Assembly: GCA_964369045.1 (NCBI GenBank) | Contig: CAYJDY010000001.1 | Location: 1-63,499 of the forward strand | Reading direction: 5' to 3' | DNA length: 63,499 nucleotides | Origin: an uncultured Candidatus Saccharibacteria bacterium | GTDB lineage: Bacteria; Patescibacteriota; Saccharimonadia; Saccharimonadales; AWTP1-31 | Shown here: piece by piece, positions 23,747-34,916 of the stretch | How positions within the stretch are numbered: the first letter of the stretch is position 1 | Layout: the number at the start of each line of letters is the position of its first letter | Made by a program: the position numbers and the translations under genes | Notes under the pieces: model-generated | What the model saw: the letters and a program-made list of their open reading frames with translations, nothing else | Told to the model about the DNA's origin: nothing | The model's database searches: none

Positions 23747-26700
23747 CTAAAGTTGGCCAGTAACTTCGGTGAAAGCGTCTTGGTAGGTTTTTACAGCTAT
23801 ACCACTGGATTGTATTGCAGTAAGGTGTTCGGCAAAGATATTTGTGTAGGTATCATATGGGCCTGGATCGCTGGCGATTCGGTGATAGACCAGAATAAGC
23901 CATGTGTTGTCTGCCTTGGCTTGCTCTATCCAAATTTTAACCTGGTTGGCAGATGTTGTGTCGAGTACATTCTGTACACGCAGTCTGTATGGGTCAAAGT
24001 TGTCCTTGCTGTTATAGCCTTCGTCTACCGTTCGGTGTGATTGATAGTACGTCTTGATGGCGTTGTTGACGGTGGCGTTATAGTCACCATAAGGAGAAGC
24101 GAAGTTTAATACTGGCTGCCCTATGATGCTCTCAAGGTACTGCTTCGAATGCTGCAACTCATAGTTCAGTGTGACTGGATCGAGTGTGGTCATGAATGGA
24201 TGTGTAACGGTGTGTGAACATATTTCATGGCCACTATTCTTGAACTTCAGGATATCACTAACTGCCTGGGCGTTTCCTTCGATGAAGGTTGTCGCATAAC
24301 ACTGCGTAGACTTGAAGCCGTACTGGTTGAGTAGTGGCAATGCAGTCGTAACGTTGTCTTCGTGTCCATCGTCAAATGTCATAGACAATAGTGGTCGGTT
24401 AAAACCAGTCGGCTTGTATTCGGTAATACTGTAGTCGTCAGTCTGAATCCATCCGTTTTGGTTGGCATACATGAACACCGATACGCTCACTGCATCGAGG
24501 GGGACACTAAAGGTGTCTGAGTATTGTTGCCAGTTACCACTCCCATTTGGTTGTGCTGCAGGCATACCAAAGTATTGCTCTGTACCATCGGCACGGATAA
24601 ACATAGCTACTGGATGAGGCACTATGTTTGTTTTGTACCAAGCGTTGAATCTGTATTGTTTGCCAGGCGTTAAGGTCTTGATAGGGTCGAAGAACCACTT
24701 TGCATCACCGTCGGTGTAATTACTGACAGTTACCTTCAGGCTCTTTGATCCAGTGTGCCCATCGTTGGTGACATATTGGAAGGCTGATGTGTTTGTACCC
24801 CATGAACCACTCTGCCAGCCAGTTGGCAGCATTGTGCCCGTTTCGACTGAACCATTTGGAATGACAATATCAGCAGTAGGGGTTGGAGGTGTCGCAACCT
24901 GCATGTAAGCATCATCAATGGTGAGCGAACCGATGCTATCGATAAGGTGGAATACAGTCGCCTTGACTGCGCCGGTTGGGGCGGTGAAGCTACCTTGATA
25001 CTGTGCCCAAGTATTTGCTGTTGGCGCACCGCCAAGCTCTAGATAAGTATAGGCGCCGTTTGCATCAATAAATGCTACAACTACTCGTGTTGGTACGGTT
25101 GATTTGTAGTAGTCACGGTAAAGGTAGCTCTTGCCAGCCAGTACCGATGTGGGATCGAAGTACCATTTTGCATCACCATCAGTAATTGCGGTTACCTTTG
25201 CTGTGACGCTACGGCTACCTGTTCGAGCACCACTAGAGTCGTAGGAAAAGCTTACGGTATTGGTTCCCCATTTGTTTGAAGACCAGACACTTGGCTTGGC
25301 ACTGTTTGCTGGATCAACGGTTTCTACCGATGGATTGGCTATAACGTTCTCGTTATCAATTGGCGGAACGACAGGGTTGTTTACAGTTACAGTTACGGCA
25401 GAAGAGGTAGCAGTCAGGCTGTTACTACTTCTAACCACAGCAGTTAGCGAATGACTGGCGTTAGTAGCAGCCAAGGTGTCCCAAGATACTTCATAAGGAG
25501 CAGTCGTATCCTCAGTGCCAAGGTTGACACCGTCTACCTTGAACTGGACGCCTGCAACACTAGCACCAGAGCTGGCAGCCGTGGCTGCGATATTCTTAGT
25601 ACCGCTGATTGATGCATTGTTAACAGGATCAGAAATGCTAACCGTAGGTGCGACAGGGTTATTAACGGTAACCGTTAATGGGGTAGAAGTCGTGCTCAAA
25701 CCATTTGTACTCCTTACATCAGCAGTAAGTATATGTGATGCATTGGTGGTAAGGGTAGTGTCCCAGGTTACCTCGTATGGTGCTGTTGTATCTTCGGCAC
25801 CAAGGTTGACACCGTCTACCTTGAACTGGACGCCTGCAACACTAGCACCAGAGCTGGCAGCGTTGGCGGTGATTTTTTGTTGCCCTGTAACTGTCGCGTT
25901 GGCGGATGGTGCCACGATACTCACCGTTGGAGTGACAGGAGCAACAGGGTTGCTGACCGTTACGGTTCGGGCGGCAGATGTAGTGCTGAGCCCGTTGGAA
26001 CTGCGCACCACAGCCGTAATATTGTGCGTAGCGTTGGTTGCCAACTTTGTATCCCAAGATGTCTCATATGGTGCTGTTGTATCCTCAGAACCAAGGTTGA
26101 TGCCGTCAACTTTGAACTGAACCCCTGCAACACTGGCACCAGAGCTGGCAGCCGTGGCAGTGATCGTTTGTGTACCAGCGACGATTCCATTGGTAGTAGG
26201 CTTCGTAATACTTACTGTTGGCGCCACCGCAACGGGAGGTGCGGTAGATGTTAGGCCGAAGAATACGTCGTCGGTCTGGAGCCAGCCAACTTTATTGATA
26301 ACATGGAAGATAGTTGCTGTTTTGGCGTTTGTAGGCATTGTGAGCGTTCCAGAAGTCTGAACCCACGATGCTGATTTAGCAGGACTCTTGATCGATTTGT
26401 AAGAAAGCGCACCAGTTGTACTGGTGATCTCAGCAACAATCTCGGTCGCTACGGTTGATTTGTAATAGGTACTATATGTATAGCTTTGTCCCGGAGTAAC
26501 GGTAACAGGCTTAAAATACCATTTTGCGTCACCACTCGAGCGGGTATTCATAGTTGTTTTGACGCTTTTCTGGCCAGTCATTGCGTCATTGGTTACGTAC
26601 TGGAATGATGCAGTATTTGTGCCCCACTGGTCAGTTAACCAGTCTTGCGGGCTCGTTGTTGGAGAGCCTGCAGTCTCTACGGAAGGGTTAGAAACGAGGT

Positions 26701-26803
26701 TGGTTCCAACGGCGACGACCTTCACGAGAGGTATAAGGGGCACAGCCATGAGAATAAAGGCCAAAAATACGAGTAATAACTTCTTCAAACTAGACATATG
26801 CAT
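23747..26803 (-). CDS. Large secreted polysaccharide deacetylase: 3 CBM4/9-like modules, 3 tandem Ig-like repeats, C-terminal NodB domain
   Basis: Signal peptide. NodB motifs TFDDG and HTVTHP near the C-terminus. Repeated GDAKWYF beta-sandwich modules. GGAGG lies 6 nt before the second ATG (26797), so the start may be 26797. Confidence 0.85.
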   Translation of the reverse strand: MHMSSLKKLLLVFLAFILMAVPLIPLVKVVAVGTNLVSNPSVETAGSPTTSPQDWLTDQWGTNTASFQYVTNDAMTGQKSVKTTMNTRSSGDAKWYFKPVTVTPGQSYTYSTYYKSTVATEIVAEITSTTGALSYKSIKSPAKSASWVQTSGTLTMPTNAKTATIFHVINKVGWLQTDDVFFGLTSTAPPVAVAPTVSITKPTTNGIVAGTQTITATAASSGASVAGVQFKVDGINLGSEDTTAPYETSWDTKLATNATHNITAVVRSSNGLSTTSAARTVTVSNPVAPVTPTVSIVAPSANATVTGQQKITANAASSGASVAGVQFKVDGVNLGAEDTTAPYEVTWDTTLTTNASHILTADVRSTNGLSTTSTPLTVTVNNPVAPTVSISDPVNNASISGTKNIAATAASSGASVAGVQFKVDGVNLGTEDTTAPYEVSWDTLAATNASHSLTAVVRSSNSLTATSSAVTVTVNNPVVPPIDNENVIANPSVETVDPANSAKPSVWSSNKWGTNTVSFSYDSSGARTGSRSVTAKVTAITDGDAKWYFDPTSVLAGKSYLYRDYYKSTVPTRVVVAFIDANGAYTYLELGGAPTANTWAQYQGSFTAPTGAVKATVFHLIDSIGSLTIDDAYMQVATPPTPTADIVIPNGSVETGTMLPTGWQSGSWGTNTSAFQYVTNDGHTGSKSLKVTVSNYTDGDAKWFFDPIKTLTPGKQYRFNAWYKTNIVPHPVAMFIRADGTEQYFGMPAAQPNGSGNWQQYSDTFSVPLDAVSVSVFMYANQNGWIQTDDYSITEYKPTGFNRPLLSMTFDDGHEDNVTTALPLLNQYGFKSTQCYATTFIEGNAQAVSDILKFKNSGHEICSHTVTHPFMTTLDPVTLNYELQHSKQYLESIIGQPVLNFASPYGDYNATVNNAIKTYYQSHRTVDEGYNSKDNFDPYRLRVQNVLDTTSANQVKIWIEQAKADNTWLILVYHRIASDPGPYDTYTNIFAEHLTAIQSSGIAVKTYQDAFTEVTGQL
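25373..26221 (-). repeat. Three in-frame tandem repeats of about 280-290 nt (Ig-like domains) inside the deacetylase gene
   Basis: Protein repeats ...SSGASVAGVQFKVDG(I/V)NLG.EDTTAPYE..WDT... occur 3 times. The identical DNA stretch caaggttgacaccgtctaccttgaactggacgcctgcaacactagcaccagagctggcagc occurs at about 25520 and about 25802. Confidence 0.9.
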
Positions 26804-26902
26804 CCTCCCGATGATATTTGTGTTTAAATTACCACTTTATTAGTTGTATGTCAACTGTAAGAAAACATAAGCGGGCTAAGCACAAGCACTTATATAACAT
26901 AC

Positions 26903-26930
26903 TTTACAAAAGTGCATAAATATGTATAAT
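26903..26930 (+). promoter_or_regulatory. Candidate promoter for the mini LPATG gene
   Basis: TTTACA (26903..26908), 16-nt spacer, TATAAT (26925..26930). Confidence 0.45.
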
Positions 26931-27009
26931 ACGCGCGTAGAAGGGTTTGTCTGCCGCTCCTTTAGTAGTGGTAGGATAGATTCTTTTGTTAACAAAAGGA
27001 GTTCTTACT

Positions 27010-27171
27010 ATGTACGGACCACAAGTTTTGGGAAGCAGCGTCACCGTTGGTGCCGCAGCTGTACTTCCTGCAACAGGAAACAACACTGCTCTGTTTATTA
27101 CAGCAGCTGTATTGTTTGTTGCAGGACTAGCAACTTTGGTCGTCTCTAAGCTCGTAGCCAACAAAGGCTAA
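27010..27171 (+). CDS. 53-aa protein consisting essentially of a sortase sorting signal (LPATG, hydrophobic helix, basic tail)
   Basis: MYGPQVLGSSVTVGAAAVLPATGNNTALFITAAVLFVAGLATLVVSKLVANKG. AAGGAG lies 8 nt upstream of the ATG at 27010. Immediately upstream of a sortase gene. Confidence 0.7.
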   Translation: MYGPQVLGSSVTVGAAAVLPATGNNTALFITAAVLFVAGLATLVVSKLVANKG

Positions 27172-27250
27172 GGGCAGAGAAGGACCTCTGTTTACAAAGG
27201 GCGGCTGAGGCGTTAAGCCTTGAGTCGCTCTTTGTACTTTAAAGATCATT

Positions 27251-27847
27251 ATGAAGACGAATAAAAAACTATTTTCTGTTGGACTCCTAGCCTGCCTCAT
27301 AGGTCTTGCAGGGCTTATTCCAAGTTTCTATTTTTGGTATCAGACCAAGCAGATTACGCATGTTGCGGCACAAGGCGCCGGCGAAACGGTCACCAAGCCT
27401 ACCGTAGTCCAGGTCCCAGCGGTCGTTACTGGTAAACCAGCTCAGCTCGTTATTCCGTCACTCAACCTTAATCTACACATTGAGGACGGTGTTTTTAATC
27501 CTCGTACTGGACAGTGGACATTATCAAACAACAATGTGCACTATGCGCTCATTACTGTCCAACCAAATGATAAGCGGGGAAATACGCTCATATATGGGCA
27601 CTACCGACCTGGCGTTTTCTCAACGCTAAAGTCTATCAAGCCAGGTGAGCTGGTTGAGGTTAGGACTGAAAACGGACTGGTATTCACATATCGTTTTACA
27701 AGCAGTCAGGTCGTAAGTCCTGCAGATGGATCAATCTTCGATTACACTGGCAAACCAATGCTAACGCTCCAAACCTGCACAGGCACATTTATGCAGAATC
27801 GACAATTCTTCCATTTTGACTTTGTAAGCGTATCAGAAGTTAATTAG
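27251..27847 (+). CDS. Sortase (membrane-anchored transpeptidase)
   Basis: N-terminal TM helix, catalytic His in LIYGHY, TLQTC active-site Cys motif, downstream Arg in QNRQF. Confidence 0.85.
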   Translation: MKTNKKLFSVGLLACLIGLAGLIPSFYFWYQTKQITHVAAQGAGETVTKPTVVQVPAVVTGKPAQLVIPSLNLNLHIEDGVFNPRTGQWTLSNNNVHYALITVQPNDKRGNTLIYGHYRPGVFSTLKSIKPGELVEVRTENGLVFTYRFTSSQVVSPADGSIFDYTGKPMLTLQTCTGTFMQNRQFFHFDFVSVSEVN

Positions 27848-29103
27848 GCAGCATCACGCAAAGCGTTTTGATCGAGCTTGTAGCGACGACCTTCCGTACC
27901 CCACCCACGTATCTCTGCTCGGAACTTGCGGAGTATATAGATTTCTACAAACGCTATAACGAAGATGATGATCTCTACCCAGCGAAGGAAATAGAAGTAT
28001 GGAAGTGCACCGATCAAATTCCAGCGCTTTATGATAACTGACGATGCCAATGTAATGACACCATTAACTACGAAGTCAGCCGCCAGTACAAACGGTAGTA
28101 CGATCCAGTTGCCCGTGGTGTAGATAATGTAGGGGATCAGAACCAGCATCTGGAACAGATAGAAGAGTGCTTGGGTGACTTGCCATCCAATGCTTACATC
28201 GATTGCCTGTGGGCGAAGCCCAATGCGGTATTTCTTCACACCCTGGAAGAACCCACGTTGCCAGCGCATATTTTGCTTGCAGAAGTCACGGAATGTTTGT
28301 GGATCTTGTGTGTAATTCACTGCGCTTGGTATGTACAATATTTTTCCGAGCTTCTGACGATGCACCTGCAGAGTAATATCAAAATCTTCCGTCAGTGTGT
28401 TTGCTTCAAAATCCAGTTTGCTTAGTATGTCTGTTCGAAAGCAAGTGATTGGACCAGGGAAGACAGATATCATACCGAGTTTTGATTGAATACGGCGGTT
28501 GACGTGCTGACTGTAGGTATAGCTGGCAGCGCGGTACGTGCTAATCCAGTTACCTCGTAGGCTTTGCACAAAACCAACAGCAACAGCGTACTTTTTAGGG
28601 TTGATCTTTTTACGGTAAATTTTGAAGTAATGTGCACCGAATACACTATCTGCATCTGCAATGTGAAGCCACTGATAACGCGTATCGAGCTCGAATTTTT
28701 TAATAGCTTTTTTGACAGCCAGCGCTTTTCCGCTTCGGCGAACTGTCAGTACGTGATCCTTGCCAAGCAATGCTACAGCTTCTCTTCGGGTCTTGTCGGA
28801 TGAGCAGTCATCGACTACATATATATCAGATAGCTTCTGCCCAGCAGCGACGGCAGAACGGATGGTAGTGGCAATAATCAGTTCTTCGTTATGGCCAGGT
28901 AAGAGTAGGCAGAGTTTCTTCTGCTTTCGCTTGTCGATAATTGGATGCTGGTCCTGGTCAACAAGTTTAATCTTGCTTTTTGTCTGCGCACTAACAGGAC
29001 TCGTCTGAGTCTTAGCAGGGCGTTTAAACCAGTTCAAAAAGCTTTTCATAACAGTTTGGGTACGAAAAAATCTCACCTCTTTAATTCCGCGATATATTAC
29101 CAT
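27844..29103 (-). CDS. Processive family-2 glycosyltransferase (PgaC/IcaA/NodC/chitin- or cellulose-synthase-like)
   Basis: VVDDCSSD, DADS, TEDFD and Q-x-x-RW (QNMRWQRG) motifs, plus C-terminal TM helices. Confidence 0.85.
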   Translation of the reverse strand: MVIYRGIKEVRFFRTQTVMKSFLNWFKRPAKTQTSPVSAQTKSKIKLVDQDQHPIIDKRKQKKLCLLLPGHNEELIIATTIRSAVAAGQKLSDIYVVDDCSSDKTRREAVALLGKDHVLTVRRSGKALAVKKAIKKFELDTRYQWLHIADADSVFGAHYFKIYRKKINPKKYAVAVGFVQSLRGNWISTYRAASYTYSQHVNRRIQSKLGMISVFPGPITCFRTDILSKLDFEANTLTEDFDITLQVHRQKLGKILYIPSAVNYTQDPQTFRDFCKQNMRWQRGFFQGVKKYRIGLRPQAIDVSIGWQVTQALFYLFQMLVLIPYIIYTTGNWIVLPFVLAADFVVNGVITLASSVIIKRWNLIGALPYFYFLRWVEIIIFVIAFVEIYILRKFRAEIRGWGTEGRRYKLDQNALRDAA

Positions 29104-29172
29104 AAAACATTAAAAAAAGCAATGCATGACTTTGCGTTAATGCTATAAACGTGTAAAAATGGTGTCACGTCT

Positions 29173-30135
29173 ATGTCGCGTAAGAAAATAGTATTACTAC
29201 TTGTTGGGGTGGCTACAACTACTCTGATGGGAGTGGCAGTCCATGTTCGTGCCGATAAAAGTAATCAATCAACTGCCAAATCAAACTCCCGCGCTAGCAG
29301 TAGAAATAAAACGGCCGTAACTCCTATAAAAGCCAAAGCGAAAGTAATGACCAAAACGAATACTGTTAAGGCAGAAACTCCGCAAACATCAGTTGCTCCA
29401 GTAAAGACGGTTGCTTGGCAAGAAAACTTTGCTAGCTATACGACCAACGTGCCCAACCCAGCATATTGGAATACTGCAGGTGCTAACCAACCGATATATA
29501 ACGAAGAGGCGCAGAAGTACGATGCCAGTACGCAGAGCGTACGAATTGAGGGTGGTAACTTAGTCATCGAGGCACGCAAAACACCAACTGGATATACATC
29601 GGGCATGGTCGACACGAAAGGTAAAGTTAAGATTACGCAAGGTAGTCGACTAGAGGCGCGTATCAAATTACCAAAAGGTCGCGGTGTATGGCCAGCATTT
29701 TGGTTATTATCTGATAACCAACCATACACCAGTGCTCTAAATCCAACTGCCACTGATTGGGATTCAGAGCGGTTCTATATGCATGACGGGGAAGTCGACA
29801 TTATGGAATCTTATGGTACCTACCCTGGTGTGGTCGAAGCAACACTACATACATTTGCCCAAAGTACTGAACGTTCAGTTTCTTCAATCGACAACAACTT
29901 TCATACCTATTGGATGGAATGGACAGAAGAAAAACTCGTTATGGGTGTTGATGATAAAGTGATTAGCTCAATTCCGGCAAACCCGGACCCTACCAAGTGG
30001 CCACTTACCAGCAGTAATCAGATGTATGTCATTTTGAACCTTGCTTTGGGTGGAACCGGTGGCGGGCAGATTATTCCCGCCGTTGGCGACAACTGGCAAA
30101 TGCAAGTCGCCTCAATTAATTATCAACGGCTATAG
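29173..30135 (+). CDS. Secreted glycoside hydrolase family 16
   Basis: Signal-anchor, GVWPAFWLL, and catalytic ExDxxE as EVDIME. Paralog of 1..990. Confidence 0.85.
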   Translation: MSRKKIVLLLVGVATTTLMGVAVHVRADKSNQSTAKSNSRASSRNKTAVTPIKAKAKVMTKTNTVKAETPQTSVAPVKTVAWQENFASYTTNVPNPAYWNTAGANQPIYNEEAQKYDASTQSVRIEGGNLVIEARKTPTGYTSGMVDTKGKVKITQGSRLEARIKLPKGRGVWPAFWLLSDNQPYTSALNPTATDWDSERFYMHDGEVDIMESYGTYPGVVEATLHTFAQSTERSVSSIDNNFHTYWMEWTEEKLVMGVDDKVISSIPANPDPTKWPLTSSNQMYVILNLALGGTGGGQIIPAVGDNWQMQVASINYQRL

Positions 30136-31653
30136 TTCGTTTAGGACGGTGATGCGTGCGCCAAGGCTGTTGAGTCGTTCGGCCAAATCCTCGTAACCAC
30201 GGTTGATGGTATACACGTTTCGGAGTATTGATGTGCCTTCTGCAGCAAGCATCCCGATGAGTAGTAGACTTGCGGGGCGAAGTGCTGGCGGACAAACAAC
30301 ATCGGCATTGGTGAATTTAGTTGGACCCTGTACGTAGATTCGGTGTGGATCTGCTAGTTCAACGTTCGCACCAATCTTAGTTAGCTCGGTGTAGTAAATG
30401 GCTCGGTTCTCGAACATCCAATCGTGGATGAGTGTTCGGCCTTTCGCCACCGCAACAATTGGTACAAAATAAGGTATGTTATCTGGGTTGATACCTGGCC
30501 ATAAATTTGGATGCAGTTTGTCGGCGAGAGCCACCAAGTTGCCGTTATGTTTGTTAATTGTCAGATCAACGAGATCGATAACACCGTTATTTGCTTTGTA
30601 ACGTTCCGAGGTATGGAAGACAAGCCCCATTATTTTTAGCTTAAATAGCTCTAGCCCGATCCAATCAATTGGAACTCGCTCGATAACGATATGCGAGTTA
30701 GTAGTCACTGCGGCAGATATAAAGAACATCGCCTCAATTGGATCTTCTGTCGGTGCGTAGGTAATATTTTTCTTGATTGATGCAACGCCAGTTACTGTCA
30801 AGGTAGAAGAGCCTATGCCAGTGATCTTAATACCGAGCTTTTGCAGGAATAGACATAGGTCTTGCACCATGTAATCAGCGCTAGCGTTTTGAATAACGGT
30901 TGTCCCATGAGTTCGTGCAGCCGCCATTAGAGCGTTATTAGTTACTGTGTTCCCCGCCTCGTATAAAATCACATGTTCAGAAGGGACCTTTTTATCGACG
31001 ACCACGTCATAGCGACCTGTTCGTGCTTTTACTCCAACACCGAAGTGCTCTAGAGCAAGTAAGTGTGGCTCAACGGTTCGTGTGCCAAGTTTACAACCAC
31101 CAGCGTAAGGAATCTTGAACGACGTATAGTCGTGCATGAGTGGGCCAAGTAGCATTAGTACGCTACGAGTTTTTCGGGCAGACAGCGCGTTAATCTTGGA
31201 TAGATCGAGTTTTGCAGGGCGACGAATCTCGAGGTCGTTATTTGGTTGCCACTTTACTTTCACACCGATGCTCTCTAGCACTTCAATGATTCGGTTTACT
31301 TCCTCAATACGCGGAAAGGCTTTGAAACGTGTAACTCCGTAGTTAAGCAAGCTGGCACAAAGCAGGGCAACGGCCGCATTTTTACTGGTCTTTAGTGGGA
31401 TAGAGCCATGGAGTTCGTGACCACCTTCGATTCGGAGGTTTACACCACCTTTACCAATTTGGATCAGTGGTTTATTTAGCACATCACTAATTCGGCCAAG
31501 CGTTTCCAGGCTAAGGTTCTGTTTACCATGTTCTATACGGTTAACCGCAGACTGGCTGGTGCCAAGCTGTTTGGCAAAAGCGGCCTGCGTGAGGCCTCTC
31601 TCTTGTCGTATTTGGTAAATAAGAGTGCCAATCTTCTCGTTAGTTGTCGACAT
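30130..31653 (-). CDS. murA: UDP-N-acetylglucosamine 1-carboxyvinyltransferase (MurA) fused to an N-terminal XRE-type HTH domain
   Basis: Residues 1-65 are IRQERGLTQAAFAKQLGTSQSAVNRIEHGKQNLSLETL (Cro/C1 HTH). The rest is MurA-like, with the active-site region YAGGCKLGTRTVEPH. 507 aa, about 70-85 aa longer than typical MurA (about 420-440 aa). Confidence 0.85.
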   Translation of the reverse strand: MSTTNEKIGTLIYQIRQERGLTQAAFAKQLGTSQSAVNRIEHGKQNLSLETLGRISDVLNKPLIQIGKGGVNLRIEGGHELHGSIPLKTSKNAAVALLCASLLNYGVTRFKAFPRIEEVNRIIEVLESIGVKVKWQPNNDLEIRRPAKLDLSKINALSARKTRSVLMLLGPLMHDYTSFKIPYAGGCKLGTRTVEPHLLALEHFGVGVKARTGRYDVVVDKKVPSEHVILYEAGNTVTNNALMAAARTHGTTVIQNASADYMVQDLCLFLQKLGIKITGIGSSTLTVTGVASIKKNITYAPTEDPIEAMFFISAAVTTNSHIVIERVPIDWIGLELFKLKIMGLVFHTSERYKANNGVIDLVDLTINKHNGNLVALADKLHPNLWPGINPDNIPYFVPIVAVAKGRTLIHDWMFENRAIYYTELTKIGANVELADPHRIYVQGPTKFTNADVVCPPALRPASLLLIGMLAAEGTSILRNVYTINRGYEDLAERLNSLGARITVLNEL

Positions 31654-31834
31654 ATTGCTCCAATATATACTTTATAAGGTATTAGTGCAAGTAACCTTAT
31701 TCTTTTTGTCTTTTTGAAACTGTAGTGTTATTTTACTCCATCTCTATCTATCTTGGTAGTGCGTAAGGTATGATAAAAGGTATGATCTGATGAAAACCTA
31801 CCTTCTGCCAAAAATTATGAAACGGAGTTAAATT

Positions 31835-33115
31835 ATGAACGATAAAGCGATTGCTGATCTAATAAAAGCCGAAGAAAAAAGGCAACGTGAAGGGCTAGAG
31901 TTAATTCCGAGTGAAAACTATGTGAGCCGAGACGTATTAACGGCGATGGGGAGTGTCTACACAAACAAATACTCCGAAGGTTATCCAGGAAAGCGCTACT
32001 ACGGCGGACAAATAAATACTGATAAGGTCGAGACTATCGCCATCGATCGCGCCAAGAAAATCTTTGGAGCTGACCATGCAAATGTCCAACCACATTCGGG
32101 TGCGCCAGCTAATATAGCCGTGTACCAGGCCTGGCTCAATCCAGGTGATACCGTTATGGCTATGCGCCTCGATCATGGTGGCCACCTTACACACGGTCAT
32201 CCAGTAACCAGTAGTGCCAAACTATACAACTTTGTTCGCTATGGCATCAAGGACATCGAAACAGGTGAGATCGACTACGAGGCCATGCGTGAAGTAGCCA
32301 TGAAAGAACGCCCAAAAATAATCCTAGCTGGCTTTAGTGGTTTTCCACGCTCCCTCGATTACAAAAAGTTTGCCGAGATCGGGAACGAGTGTGGGGCAGT
32401 CCTGATGGCTGATATGGCACATATTGCCGGACTAATTGCCGGTAAGGTGCTACCAAATCCGTTCGACTATGGCTTCCACATCATTACCACTACCACACAC
32501 AAAACACTGCGCGGACCACGTGGTGGTCTGATACTTACCAAGGGAACAGCAGGCAATACCCTGAAGGCACCAGAAAAAACCATAGAAAATCTGCCAACAC
32601 TCATTGACCGTGAGATTTTCCCTGGGTTCCAAGGCGGGCCTCACATGCATACTATTGCAGCTAAGGCGGTCGCTTTCCGCGAAGCACTACAGCCTGAGTT
32701 CAAAACATATGCCCAGGCAATAGTCGATAATGCCAGCAAGTTGGCTGATGAACTTCAGGCGAAAGGCTTCAAGTTGGTTACAAATGGAACCGATAACCAC
32801 ATGATTATGATCGATATGCCTAAGAGCTTTGAAGGCGTGACGGGCCGTGACGCGCAGGATATTCTGGACGAAATAGGGCTGAATGCTAACTGTAATGCTG
32901 TTCCTGACGATCCTTTGCCACCATACCGACCGAGCGGACTGCGTCTTGGTACCCCGGCCATTACAACTCGTGGGCTAAAAGAAAAAGACATGGCGCAAGT
33001 TGCCGAGTGGATGCACTCAGCAATCAAGCATCGCAAAGATGCTAAAAAGTTGAAGACCCTTGCGCAGGAGGTCAAAGAGTTCGCACTGCAGTTCCCGCTA
33101 CCCAGCGATATCTAG
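31835..33115 (+). CDS. glyA: Serine hydroxymethyltransferase
   Basis: LIPSENY, and the TTTHKTLRGPRGG PLP-lysine motif. Confidence 0.97.
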   Translation: MNDKAIADLIKAEEKRQREGLELIPSENYVSRDVLTAMGSVYTNKYSEGYPGKRYYGGQINTDKVETIAIDRAKKIFGADHANVQPHSGAPANIAVYQAWLNPGDTVMAMRLDHGGHLTHGHPVTSSAKLYNFVRYGIKDIETGEIDYEAMREVAMKERPKIILAGFSGFPRSLDYKKFAEIGNECGAVLMADMAHIAGLIAGKVLPNPFDYGFHIITTTTHKTLRGPRGGLILTKGTAGNTLKAPEKTIENLPTLIDREIFPGFQGGPHMHTIAAKAVAFREALQPEFKTYAQAIVDNASKLADELQAKGFKLVTNGTDNHMIMIDMPKSFEGVTGRDAQDILDEIGLNANCNAVPDDPLPPYRPSGLRLGTPAITTRGLKEKDMAQVAEWMHSAIKHRKDAKKLKTLAQEVKEFALQFPLPSDI

Positions 33116-33207: not shown

Positions 33208-34245
33208 CTATGAAGAAATTAATTCTGGTTCTTGACGCAGCGTAATGCCAAATTCGTGATGCACATCGCGAATGATTCGGTCCCGAAATATAATTAGGTC
33301 AGCGGTATGGGTCGCCTTCTCATTGACCAGGACTAGTGATTGGGTCGGCCAGGTTGCCATGCCTGTTTTGGAATCGTGGAAGTTTTTGAATCCAACTTTT
33401 TCGATGAGCCACGCGGCTGAAACTTTTACTCTACCATCGCTTGTTGGCCAACCAGGAATAGTGCTATATTTTTTGGAAATTTTATCGAAGAGGACCTTCG
33501 AAATTATTGGGTTGCCGAAGAATGAGCCGTTGTTGGCGATCTTCTTGGGGTCCGGTAGTTTTCGACTTCGCACATCAATCACTGCATCGCGAATAATCTG
33601 TGGAGTATACTTTTTGACGCCAGCCTCATCCAACGTCTTTTGAAGTGTTGGATAAAAGGGCGGGGTGGGTAAGTCAGTGCTTAGGAGAAATTTGAGTGAA
33701 GTAATAAAGAAGCGTGATCGGTCGGTCGTATTGAACCGGCTCGTTCGGTAACCGAATTTGCATTGTTCGCCCAAGATCGTCACGAATGCTTTTTTGTGAC
33801 TGTCATAGGCCTCGATACTGACAAGCGTATCGGCTACTTCTTGGCCGTATGCTCCAACATTTTGCACAGGAGTTGCACCTACAGTACCTGGGATAAGTGA
33901 TAACGCTTCGATACCGTGTAGCCCAGCTTTAGTGGACTGTAGTACTATTTTGTCCCAGTTTTCACCTGCCCCAACTTCTAAATATGACGATTCGGAGTCC
34001 ACTTTTGTGATCTTTATTCCGCGAATTTTATTAACCAATACGAGTCCGTCAAAACCATCATCACTCCAGACGATATTGCTGCCAATACCGATCATTATGA
34101 CCGGTAGTTTTTTTTCTTCAGCCCATTCTAGCGCATTTGGTATGTCCGATTTGTCGCTAATGTTGGCTAAGTACTTAGCATTACCACCAAGTCGCATAGT
34201 TGAGTGTGCGCTCAGTGAAACGTTGGTTTGCAGGTTCATGTACAC
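33208..34245 (-). CDS. murB: UDP-N-acetylenolpyruvoylglucosamine reductase
   Basis: FAD-binding N-domain (TMRLGGNAKY, IGIGSNIV) and MurB C-terminal domain (GSFFGNP). Confidence 0.9.
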   Translation of the reverse strand: MYMNLQTNVSLSAHSTMRLGGNAKYLANISDKSDIPNALEWAEEKKLPVIMIGIGSNIVWSDDGFDGLVLVNKIRGIKITKVDSESSYLEVGAGENWDKIVLQSTKAGLHGIEALSLIPGTVGATPVQNVGAYGQEVADTLVSIEAYDSHKKAFVTILGEQCKFGYRTSRFNTTDRSRFFITSLKFLLSTDLPTPPFYPTLQKTLDEAGVKKYTPQIIRDAVIDVRSRKLPDPKKIANNGSFFGNPIISKVLFDKISKKYSTIPGWPTSDGRVKVSAAWLIEKVGFKNFHDSKTGMATWPTQSLVLVNEKATHTADLIIFRDRIIRDVHHEFGITLRQEPELISS

Positions 34246-34343: not shown

Positions 34344-34916
34344 ATGGTGAGCGAGAATAAAAGACTAGAACAACCATACCTGAATCTTGGAAAAAAACTT
34401 AAAGCTGTACGCGTAGAGCTAAAGCGGAGCGTATCAGAAGTTTCTGGCGCAGTCGAAATAGATAACAGTACTCTGGAACAAATCGAACGTGGTGAACAGC
34501 GACCTGCAGAAGAAATCCTGGCTCTACTCATTAGTTACTTTGAATTGAAAGATGATGCTGCTAGCAAGCTTTGGAAACTAGCTGGCTATGAAGATAAAAA
34601 TCCATTATCACAAACGACGTTTGAGCTTGGGCAGCCAATTGCCATGATGATGCCTATGGACTTGCGTGTTGTTTATACGGATATGGTTCACGTTATGATC
34701 AATAATTACGGTGTAGTTATGAACTTCATGCAGGGCGCTGGCCAAGGTGGTCAACCACTGGCAGTTGCACGGATCGGAATGAGTAAGGAGCACGCACGCT
34801 CAGTACTCGAGATCCTTGATGAATCGCTAAAACAAGCCGAGAAAAAAGACGCACCAAAGCTATTAAACTCTGCCAAAAAGAAAACAGACCAAGCAGACAA
34901 TAAAAAAGAGAAGTAG
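34344..34916 (+). CDS. XRE-family HTH protein with DUF3467-like C-terminal domain
   Basis: HTH LGKKLKAVRVELKRSVSEVSGAVEIDNSTLEQIERGE. The C-terminal VVMNFMQ...ARIGMSKEHARSVLEIL resembles DUF3467. AAGGAG RBS. Confidence 0.6.
   Translation: MVSENKRLEQPYLNLGKKLKAVRVELKRSVSEVSGAVEIDNSTLEQIERGEQRPAEEILALLISYFELKDDAASKLWKLAGYEDKNPLSQTTFELGQPIAMMMPMDLRVVYTDMVHVMINNYGVVMNFMQGAGQGGQPLAVARIGMSKEHARSVLEILDESLKQAEKKDAPKLLNSAKKKTDQADNKKEK

Follow-up and report, generated by a model that had tools for sequence, protein, structure and literature searches.

The 63,499-nucleotide stretch analysed here (hereafter the window; contig CAYJDY010000001.1 of assembly GCA_964369045.1, from an uncultured Candidatus Saccharibacteria bacterium) is contig C1 of a 1.45-Mb assembly and carries on its minus strand a murA gene whose product joins an N-terminal helix-turn-helix (HTH) domain of the XRE type to a MurA enolpyruvyl transferase. 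Comparison of this HTH-MurA with its relatives points to an enzyme that represses its own gene: the C-terminal domain would be a working MurA, and the N-terminal XRE domain would bind, as a dimer, a palindrome in its own promoter. The bound dimer would fill the −10 box and the spacer between it and the −35 box and so block RNA polymerase, and I consider such autorepression likely from the sequence comparisons set out below. The gene is divided as follows:

30130-31653, minus strand: HTH-MurA fusion gene, 507 amino acids, ATG start, internal stops absent

31465-31653, minus strand: XRE/Cro-C1 HTH domain (residues 1-63) with recognition helix TSQSAVNRIE, from Pfam HTH_3 and the structure model

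31444-31464, minus strand: short variable linker (residues 64-70), from the predicted local distance difference test (pLDDT) and homologue identity

30133-31443, minus strand: MurA enolpyruvyl transferase domain (residues 71-507), from residue alignment and Foldseek

31093-31095, minus strand: codon of active-site Cys187 (C115 equivalent), from alignment to E. cloacae MurA

The initial annotation, made from the sequence alone, had described a continuous reading frame fusing an XRE HTH to a full-length MurA, and this description held. Pfam placed HTH_3 at residues 12-63 (58.4 bits, cut-off 23) and EPSP_synthase at residues 76-494, and both domains were present in all of the 120 best database matches, which were 506-525 amino acids long; close homologues with names were Patescibacteria/Saccharibacteria. 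A frameshift separating the two parts in independent assemblies, the weak point named at the outset, was not seen: a 2025 independent wastewater run yielded a single contig across 29000-32352 with 39 substitutions and no gaps. A frameshift or misassembly behind the fusion was rejected on the basis of this contig and of the same architecture in homologues and relatives. The fusion also proved to be conserved, being full-length in 37 of 40 relative genomes, with the remaining three consisting of a piece at a contig end (G036), a partial match (G024) and an 81%-complete genome without a match (G040). An HTH-only form in G036 was considered and rejected, as this gene piece is a contig-end artefact.

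The active-site loop GGCKLGTR was likewise confirmed, its cysteine being C187, which aligns with C115 of E. cloacae MurA. All nine catalytic residues were matched (K91, N92, R163, C187, R192, D391, R417, R459, and R485, corresponding in the same order to K22, N23, R91, C115, R120, D305, R331, R371, and R397 of E. cloacae MurA), and the NCBIfam model PRK09369.1 (MurA) was passed with 323.3 bits at a cut-off of 297. AlphaFold modelled the two-lobed enolpyruvyl transferase fold with a mean pLDDT of 92, and Foldseek matched it to MurA 5u4h (E 3.7e-40) and to solved MurA structures with a template-modelling score, by target, of up to 0.95; complexes of MurA with UDP-N-acetylmuramic acid (UDP-MurNAc), 3su9 and 3swd, were among the matches. 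A check for a second, unfused murA found none in the 93.9%-complete, 5.2%-contaminated assembly, where the fusion is the only PF00275 gene, and the genome also has murB and five Mur-ligase-family genes. The next enzyme of the pathway lies close by:

33208-34245, minus strand: murB, two genes from the fusion, from Pfam FAD_binding_4 and MurB_C

Length, domains, and synteny, rather than a sequence alignment, single out Southlakia epibionticum SEML1_0687 (1524 bp, same Pfam domains, divergent glyA; PMC10633639 Tables S1 and S2) as the orthologue. It was called essential at all three passages of a transposon-sequencing experiment (PMC10633639 Table S1), where glyA was not called essential (NE, NE, GD) and murB was called GD, ES, and ES (PMC10633639). 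Because the nine residues are intact, the fusion is the sole PF00275 gene, Mur-pathway genes are present, and the S. epibionticum orthologue is essential, the fusion is very probably the housekeeping MurA of the cell. That the enzyme domain uses a different acceptor, in the manner of NikO, is extremely improbable: it would fit changes near the N-acetyl pocket (equivalents of E190M, R232P, and T304P) and a score of 306.7 with TIGR01072 (murA), below the cut-off of 392.7, but positions 190 and 232 vary in canonical MurAs of the candidate phyla radiation (CPR) too, NikO scores far under the MurAs, and this is the sole PF00275 protein of a genome that also carries murB and five genes of the Mur-ligase family, with an essential orthologue. 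An identity as AroA or NikO was rejected on scores (TIGR01356 65 vs 287; NikO 67 bits vs MurA 184).

In the AlphaFold model the head consists of four helices (residues 2-18, 23-30, 34-41, and 49-59) and is followed by a linker of which residues 65-69 have a pLDDT below 50. Identity among homologues was 89% for the HTH against 80% for the enzyme part, rising to 93% around the recognition helix and falling to 57% in the linker. PRK08154 gave a weak match at residues 6-65. A HipB/HigA-type antitoxin was tried and rejected, with TIGR03070 scoring 51.1 against the family cut-off of 71.65, GH16 and glyA as neighbours, and no adjacent toxin.

The putative target of this domain overlaps the predicted murA promoter:

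31667-31682, no strand: putative operator, a palindrome of 16 bp (ATACC-TTATAA-AGTAT) that spans −29 to −14 relative to the murA ATG

31662-31667, minus strand: predicted −10 box TATATT, ending 8 nt before the ATG, from sequence

31685-31690, minus strand: predicted −35 box TTGCAC, weak, with a 17-nt spacer filled by the operator, from sequence

A common element, ATAYC-N6-GRTAT, recurs upstream of the gene in relatives, in most cases 27-31 nt from the ATG. Operators were counted in the 130 nt upstream as matches to the joint consensus ATMYC-N6-GRKAT with no more than one mismatch. Counted in this way, among genomes that are kin and whose counts thereby overstate significance, the operator was present in 65 of 69 fused genes with the TSQS helix (among them 33 of the 35 fetched after the consensus had been fixed), in one of 24 HTH-less members of the same MurA subfamily, and in none of the three fusions with a decayed helix (L032, L217, L223); shuffled upstream regions matched at 2-5%. 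The HTH-less forms sit at several places in the trees. Actinobacterial loci of the Streptomyces/Nonomuraea type had ATCTC-N6-GAGAT at −27 to −29 in 80 of 80 cases, within divergent GC-rich flanks. At locus L014 the operator and the adjoining −10 box lie together at −101. By these comparisons, the predicted palindrome on the gene's own promoter tracks the recognition helix. Extra perfect matches also occurred within the fusion coding sequence, common to sister loci (L025 and L027 at +142; L269 and L270 at +931), and these may be secondary operators or a codon accident.

The −35 box reads TTGCAT in independent runs (variant at 31685), and a sigma-70 consensus scanner missed the murA promoter, with the −35 box matching at only three of six positions. 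A contig from an RNA run spans 31446-31701, a type of contig that gives no start, strand or level. From the position of the −10 box and by analogy with S. coelicolor, the murA transcript is probably leaderless: murA2 of that species (SCO5998, 1530 bp) is listed as leaderless by differential RNA sequencing (PMC4895711 Suppl. Data 2), which means that the palindrome lies on a real promoter there.

A dimer is expected because the operator is palindromic. The homodimer model scored 0.45 and the best control 0.00; in calibration, 20 of 30 solved homodimers and one of 23 monomers attained the mark of 0.42. Runs of the model agreed in at least 95% of contacts with a pLDDT of at least 82. The confident interface is formed by both lobes of the enzyme body (227-284 and 330-437). 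This marginal model supports a homodimer through the enzyme body, and its score may reflect crystal contacts of solved MurAs.

Several observations weigh against autorepression, in addition to the kinship of the genomes counted and the low TIGR01072 score. The dimer score is barely above the mark, its interface excludes the HTH, and the interface residues are shared by HTH-less MurAs and by many canonical ones of the CPR. The site of this genome itself has one mismatch to ATMYC-N6-GRKAT, and 13 perfect copies occur elsewhere in the genome, where 6 are expected and other spacings give 3-16; with perfect copies near chance level, specificity must need more than these ten bases. One HTH-less murA (L202, G438:C10) has a perfect operator at −54 with the upstream HTH frame absent, and may represent a recent loss of the HTH or a regulator encoded elsewhere. 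Lastly, overexpression of murA2 in S. venezuelae did not reproduce the phenotype of whiI overexpression (10.1101/2023.08.23.554472), which says little about autoregulation.

The palindrome could also be bound by another factor, or be mere promoter sequence, with the HTH serving a role away from DNA such as localisation or protein contact. The right half-site does equal a GRTATAAT extended −10, and the region upstream of Streptomyces murA2 is bound by BldM-WhiI and has a SigB-type promoter (PMC4125116, PMC8346170). I regard this as very unlikely: the site is gone where the HTH is lost or its helix decayed, the left half is rare at other promoters (only two of the 53 promoters of this genome with the right half also have it), the BldM-WhiI site is described as non-palindromic, and the palindrome is common to two phyla. 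Binding by the fused HTH itself is the reading followed below.

The initial annotation had pointed to the divergent region shared with glyA as the target of the HTH. The divergent arrangement was confirmed:

31835-33115, plus strand: glyA, divergent neighbour, ATG 152 nt from the operator, from Pfam

This region does hold the probable site, but the comparisons did not support glyA itself as the target. In 56 of 65 cases the operator is found 23-32 nt ahead of the murA start codon, whereas it lies anywhere from 44 to 173 nt from the glyA ATG across relatives, and in two relatives that keep the operator glyA is more than 1 kb away (L003, L004). The operator is also kept in loci with aconitase or mur genes as the divergent neighbour and in loci without an adjacent glyA. 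Because the spacing to murA is fixed and that to glyA is free, the conserved target would be the promoter of murA, and probably not glyA. Control of glyA, alone or together with murA, would link wall synthesis to the supply of glycine, serine, and one-carbon units; it would agree with the divergent glyA in nearly all Saccharimonadales loci and in S. epibionticum, and with the shortest gaps (73-108 nt), which put the operator 44-80 nt from the glyA ATG, where it could touch the glyA promoter. Against the free spacing, however, and given that the site here lies ~90-100 nt from the likely glyA −10 box (TATGAT, 31770-31775 or 31781-31786) and that actinobacteria keep it with an aconitase neighbour in S. 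venezuelae, such control is unlikely, and glyA could be affected as a side effect in the few relatives with very short gaps. A tandem GGTATGAT repeat with a 12-nt period lies upstream of glyA (31765-31786) and equals an operator half-site; it reads more simply as duplicated glyA −10 boxes than as operator half-sites.

A wider regulon in this genome was rejected as chance, as the spacing of 6 shows no excess over other spacings. Only one of the 13 perfect sites is at a promoter, that of alaS (C11:14821), and alaS was rejected as a member since the perfect site occurs in one of 28 relatives, namely this genome's own. The alaS promoters of Saccharimonadales (G000:C11:14821-14850, which is L237, and L238-L265) share TCTGTTA / TAACAGAT elements around the −10 box and the start codon, which form inverted pairs in some loci (L255, L265) and recall the autorepression of AlaRS in E. 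coli. On these comparisons the regulon here looks like murA alone.

Fused proteins that appear to be catalytically dead were found by a search of 50%-identity representatives and a search with one of them, P0127: 12 proteins keep the TSQS helix and have lost 3-9 of the nine catalytic residues. At L131, L133, and L268 an unfused murA together with murB lies divergent to the dead gene, which is followed by ddl or a Mur ligase gene; at L269 and L270 the divergent genes are murD-murC-murE-murA and the dead gene is followed by murF or ddl-murF, with the genes of L270 assigned by synteny with L269. Nine dead-gene loci comprised six with a perfect site, two with a variant palindrome, and one on a contig without the operon start. 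The HTH and its site thus outlast catalysis in the dead relatives, and the predicted targets there are peptidoglycan genes. The same module would thus control whole mur operons in some relatives, and the dead HTH-MurAs of L131, L132, L133, L268, L269, and L270 (P0127, P0133, P0138, P0287, P0290, and P0289) are candidate dedicated regulators of the peptidoglycan pathway. No close relative of the dead form was found among 401 Patescibacteria genomes (best identity 41%), and scanning metagenomes for such loci gave no hit; a single dead clade had weak support (80) and long branches in a quick tree.

The unfused MurAs beside two of the dead fusions (L131:624-1940(-) and L133:558-1916(-)) have the R331 and R371 equivalents replaced by G and Q, keep K22, R91, C115, R120, D305, and R397, and form a long branch in the tree; they may be an odd MurA variant or partners of the dead copy. 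At L134:686-3554 the dead fusion is third in an operon of NUDIX, NTP-transferase, and HTH-MurA genes; a perfect operator lies at the head of this operon (−1315) and suggests a nucleotide-sugar regulon.

These relatives bear on whether the repressor also senses its pathway. The enzyme body could act as a sensor whose open or closed state is set by UDP-N-acetylglucosamine, phosphoenolpyruvate or the feedback inhibitor UDP-MurNAc: closure of the lobes on ligand binding would reposition the two heads and alter dimer geometry and operator binding, with repression by UDP-MurNAc-bound or excess MurA and release when flux is needed as a likely logic. From sequence and model, I hold the chances for and against a pathway ligand tuning DNA binding to be about even. 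Autorepression by protein concentration alone, with an enzyme domain that only dimerises, is possible but on the improbable side; it would agree with a predicted dimer surface that predates the fusion, but the dead relatives keep the whole ~430-amino-acid enzyme fold. Eight of them, having lost R91, C115, R120, and R371, also retain the equivalents of D305 and R331, and the dead proteins aligned at H125 keep its equivalent too. This hints at a retained nucleotide-sugar (ligand) pocket and fits it better than a mere dimer surface, and MurA-UDP-MurNAc complexes have been solved (3su9, 3swd), which again speaks for ligand control.

In the Saccharimonadales sampled, MurA as a rule takes this fused form. 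Elsewhere in the Patescibacteria the fusion occurs sporadically, and most of these other Patescibacteria carry an ordinary MurA. Besides S. venezuelae, it was found in only five of 120 sampled Actinomycetota genomes, four of them with a second MurA; the unpublished genomes G194, G240, G250, and G302 count only in this denominator of 120. In one actinobacterial genome (G305, locus L141) the fused form was the only MurA found at E < 1e-25, which suggests that it replaced the native murA. The enzyme-domain tree nested the actinobacterial clade (support 98) in a Saccharimonadales family (99), and a tree with this clade forced out of Saccharimonadales was rejected by the approximately unbiased test (p 2e-47), for which two non-Saccharimonadales rows were added to the tested group after the tree had been seen and the long dead rows were left out. 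The trees were quick searches, rooted on HTH-less CPR relatives and with actinobacterial rows of skewed composition. The simplest reading of the tree is that the fusion passed from Saccharibacteria to Actinomycetota, the phylum of their hosts, and I think this fairly probable.

The actinobacterial counterpart is Streptomyces MurA2 (S. coelicolor SCO5998; S. venezuelae sven5810/vnz_28735), an HTH-MurA of 507-509 amino acids with ~55% identity, the TSQS helix, and the palindrome ATCTC-N6-GAGAT at the same place; in S. venezuelae (L116) aconitase is divergent, as in SCO5998/SCO5999. Streptomyces also keep a canonical MurA, whereas the fusion is the sole MurA here. In the parts of the literature consulted, MurA2 is treated as a second MurA and as a target of BldM-WhiI, SigB or DmdR1, with the HTH unmentioned (10.1101/2023.08.23.554472, PMC4125116, PMC8346170). 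A literature search for the HTH or autoregulation of Streptomyces MurA2 or Patescibacteria MurA found no paper, with most subscription journals outside its range. The HTH-MurA domain pair is common and already in public annotation (e.g. Table S2 of PMC10633639), and what would be new here is the regulation rather than the fusion.

Compared with MurA/MurAA/MurZ (EC 2.5.1.7), the protein shares fold, catalytic residues, and pathway context, but solved MurAs are without a DNA-binding domain, and all of them match from residue 72 on. MurA is known to be controlled by feedback inhibition and proteolysis; autorepression is, to my knowledge, not among its controls. BirA, PutA, and NadR each combine, in one chain, a working enzyme with a DNA-binding domain through which their own pathway is controlled, and effector control has been shown for them. 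HTH-MurA would resemble them in this arrangement, its DNA binding being predicted from sequence, but differs in fold and pathway, and its effector control is only inferred. I know of no enzyme-repressor acting on peptidoglycan precursor synthesis. BzdR of Azoarcus sp. CIB also joins an N-terminal XRE-type domain to an enzyme-derived domain and is proposed as a model for enzyme-to-regulator evolution (PMC3602430). Its effector domain is shikimate-kinase-like, whereas the enzyme domain here looks active, with catalytic residues intact, and only the dead relatives (P0127, P0133, P0138, P0287-P0291) are BzdR-like. With a fusion that looks active and BzdR-like dead relatives, the family shows both stages of enzyme-to-regulator evolution in nature.

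Two further features of the neighbourhood were recorded. Divergent from murB, window 34344-34916 (plus strand) encodes a 190-amino-acid protein that contains an XRE HTH, matches DUF3467 weakly, and is a possible second local regulator. Directly downstream of murA (window 23747-30135) lie genes for a secreted deacetylase-like protein, a sortase, a GT2 synthase, and a GH16 protein; the GH16 gene has a 6-nt overlap with the murA stop and is missing from the other loci compared.

Taken as a whole, the data would tentatively accommodate a family of MurA-based repressors that sense peptidoglycan precursors, a view I put forward as somewhat short of probable: it would have originated in Patescibacteria as an essential self-repressing enzyme under ligand control, lost catalysis in some lineages to yield regulators of mur and ddl genes, and passed from epibiont to host as Streptomyces MurA2, a candidate gene transfer into the host phylum. 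Little is known of how cells sense cytoplasmic wall precursors directly at the level of transcription, and MurA catalyses the committed step of the pathway and is the target of fosfomycin. The active-fused, dead-fused, and HTH-less forms side by side offer a natural series for how enzymes turn into regulators. For the regulator-poor Saccharibacteria this is a rare predicted regulator-operator pair, and a self-repressing MurA, if true, would be a simple circuit open to testing in S. epibionticum and Streptomyces, both of them genetically tractable.

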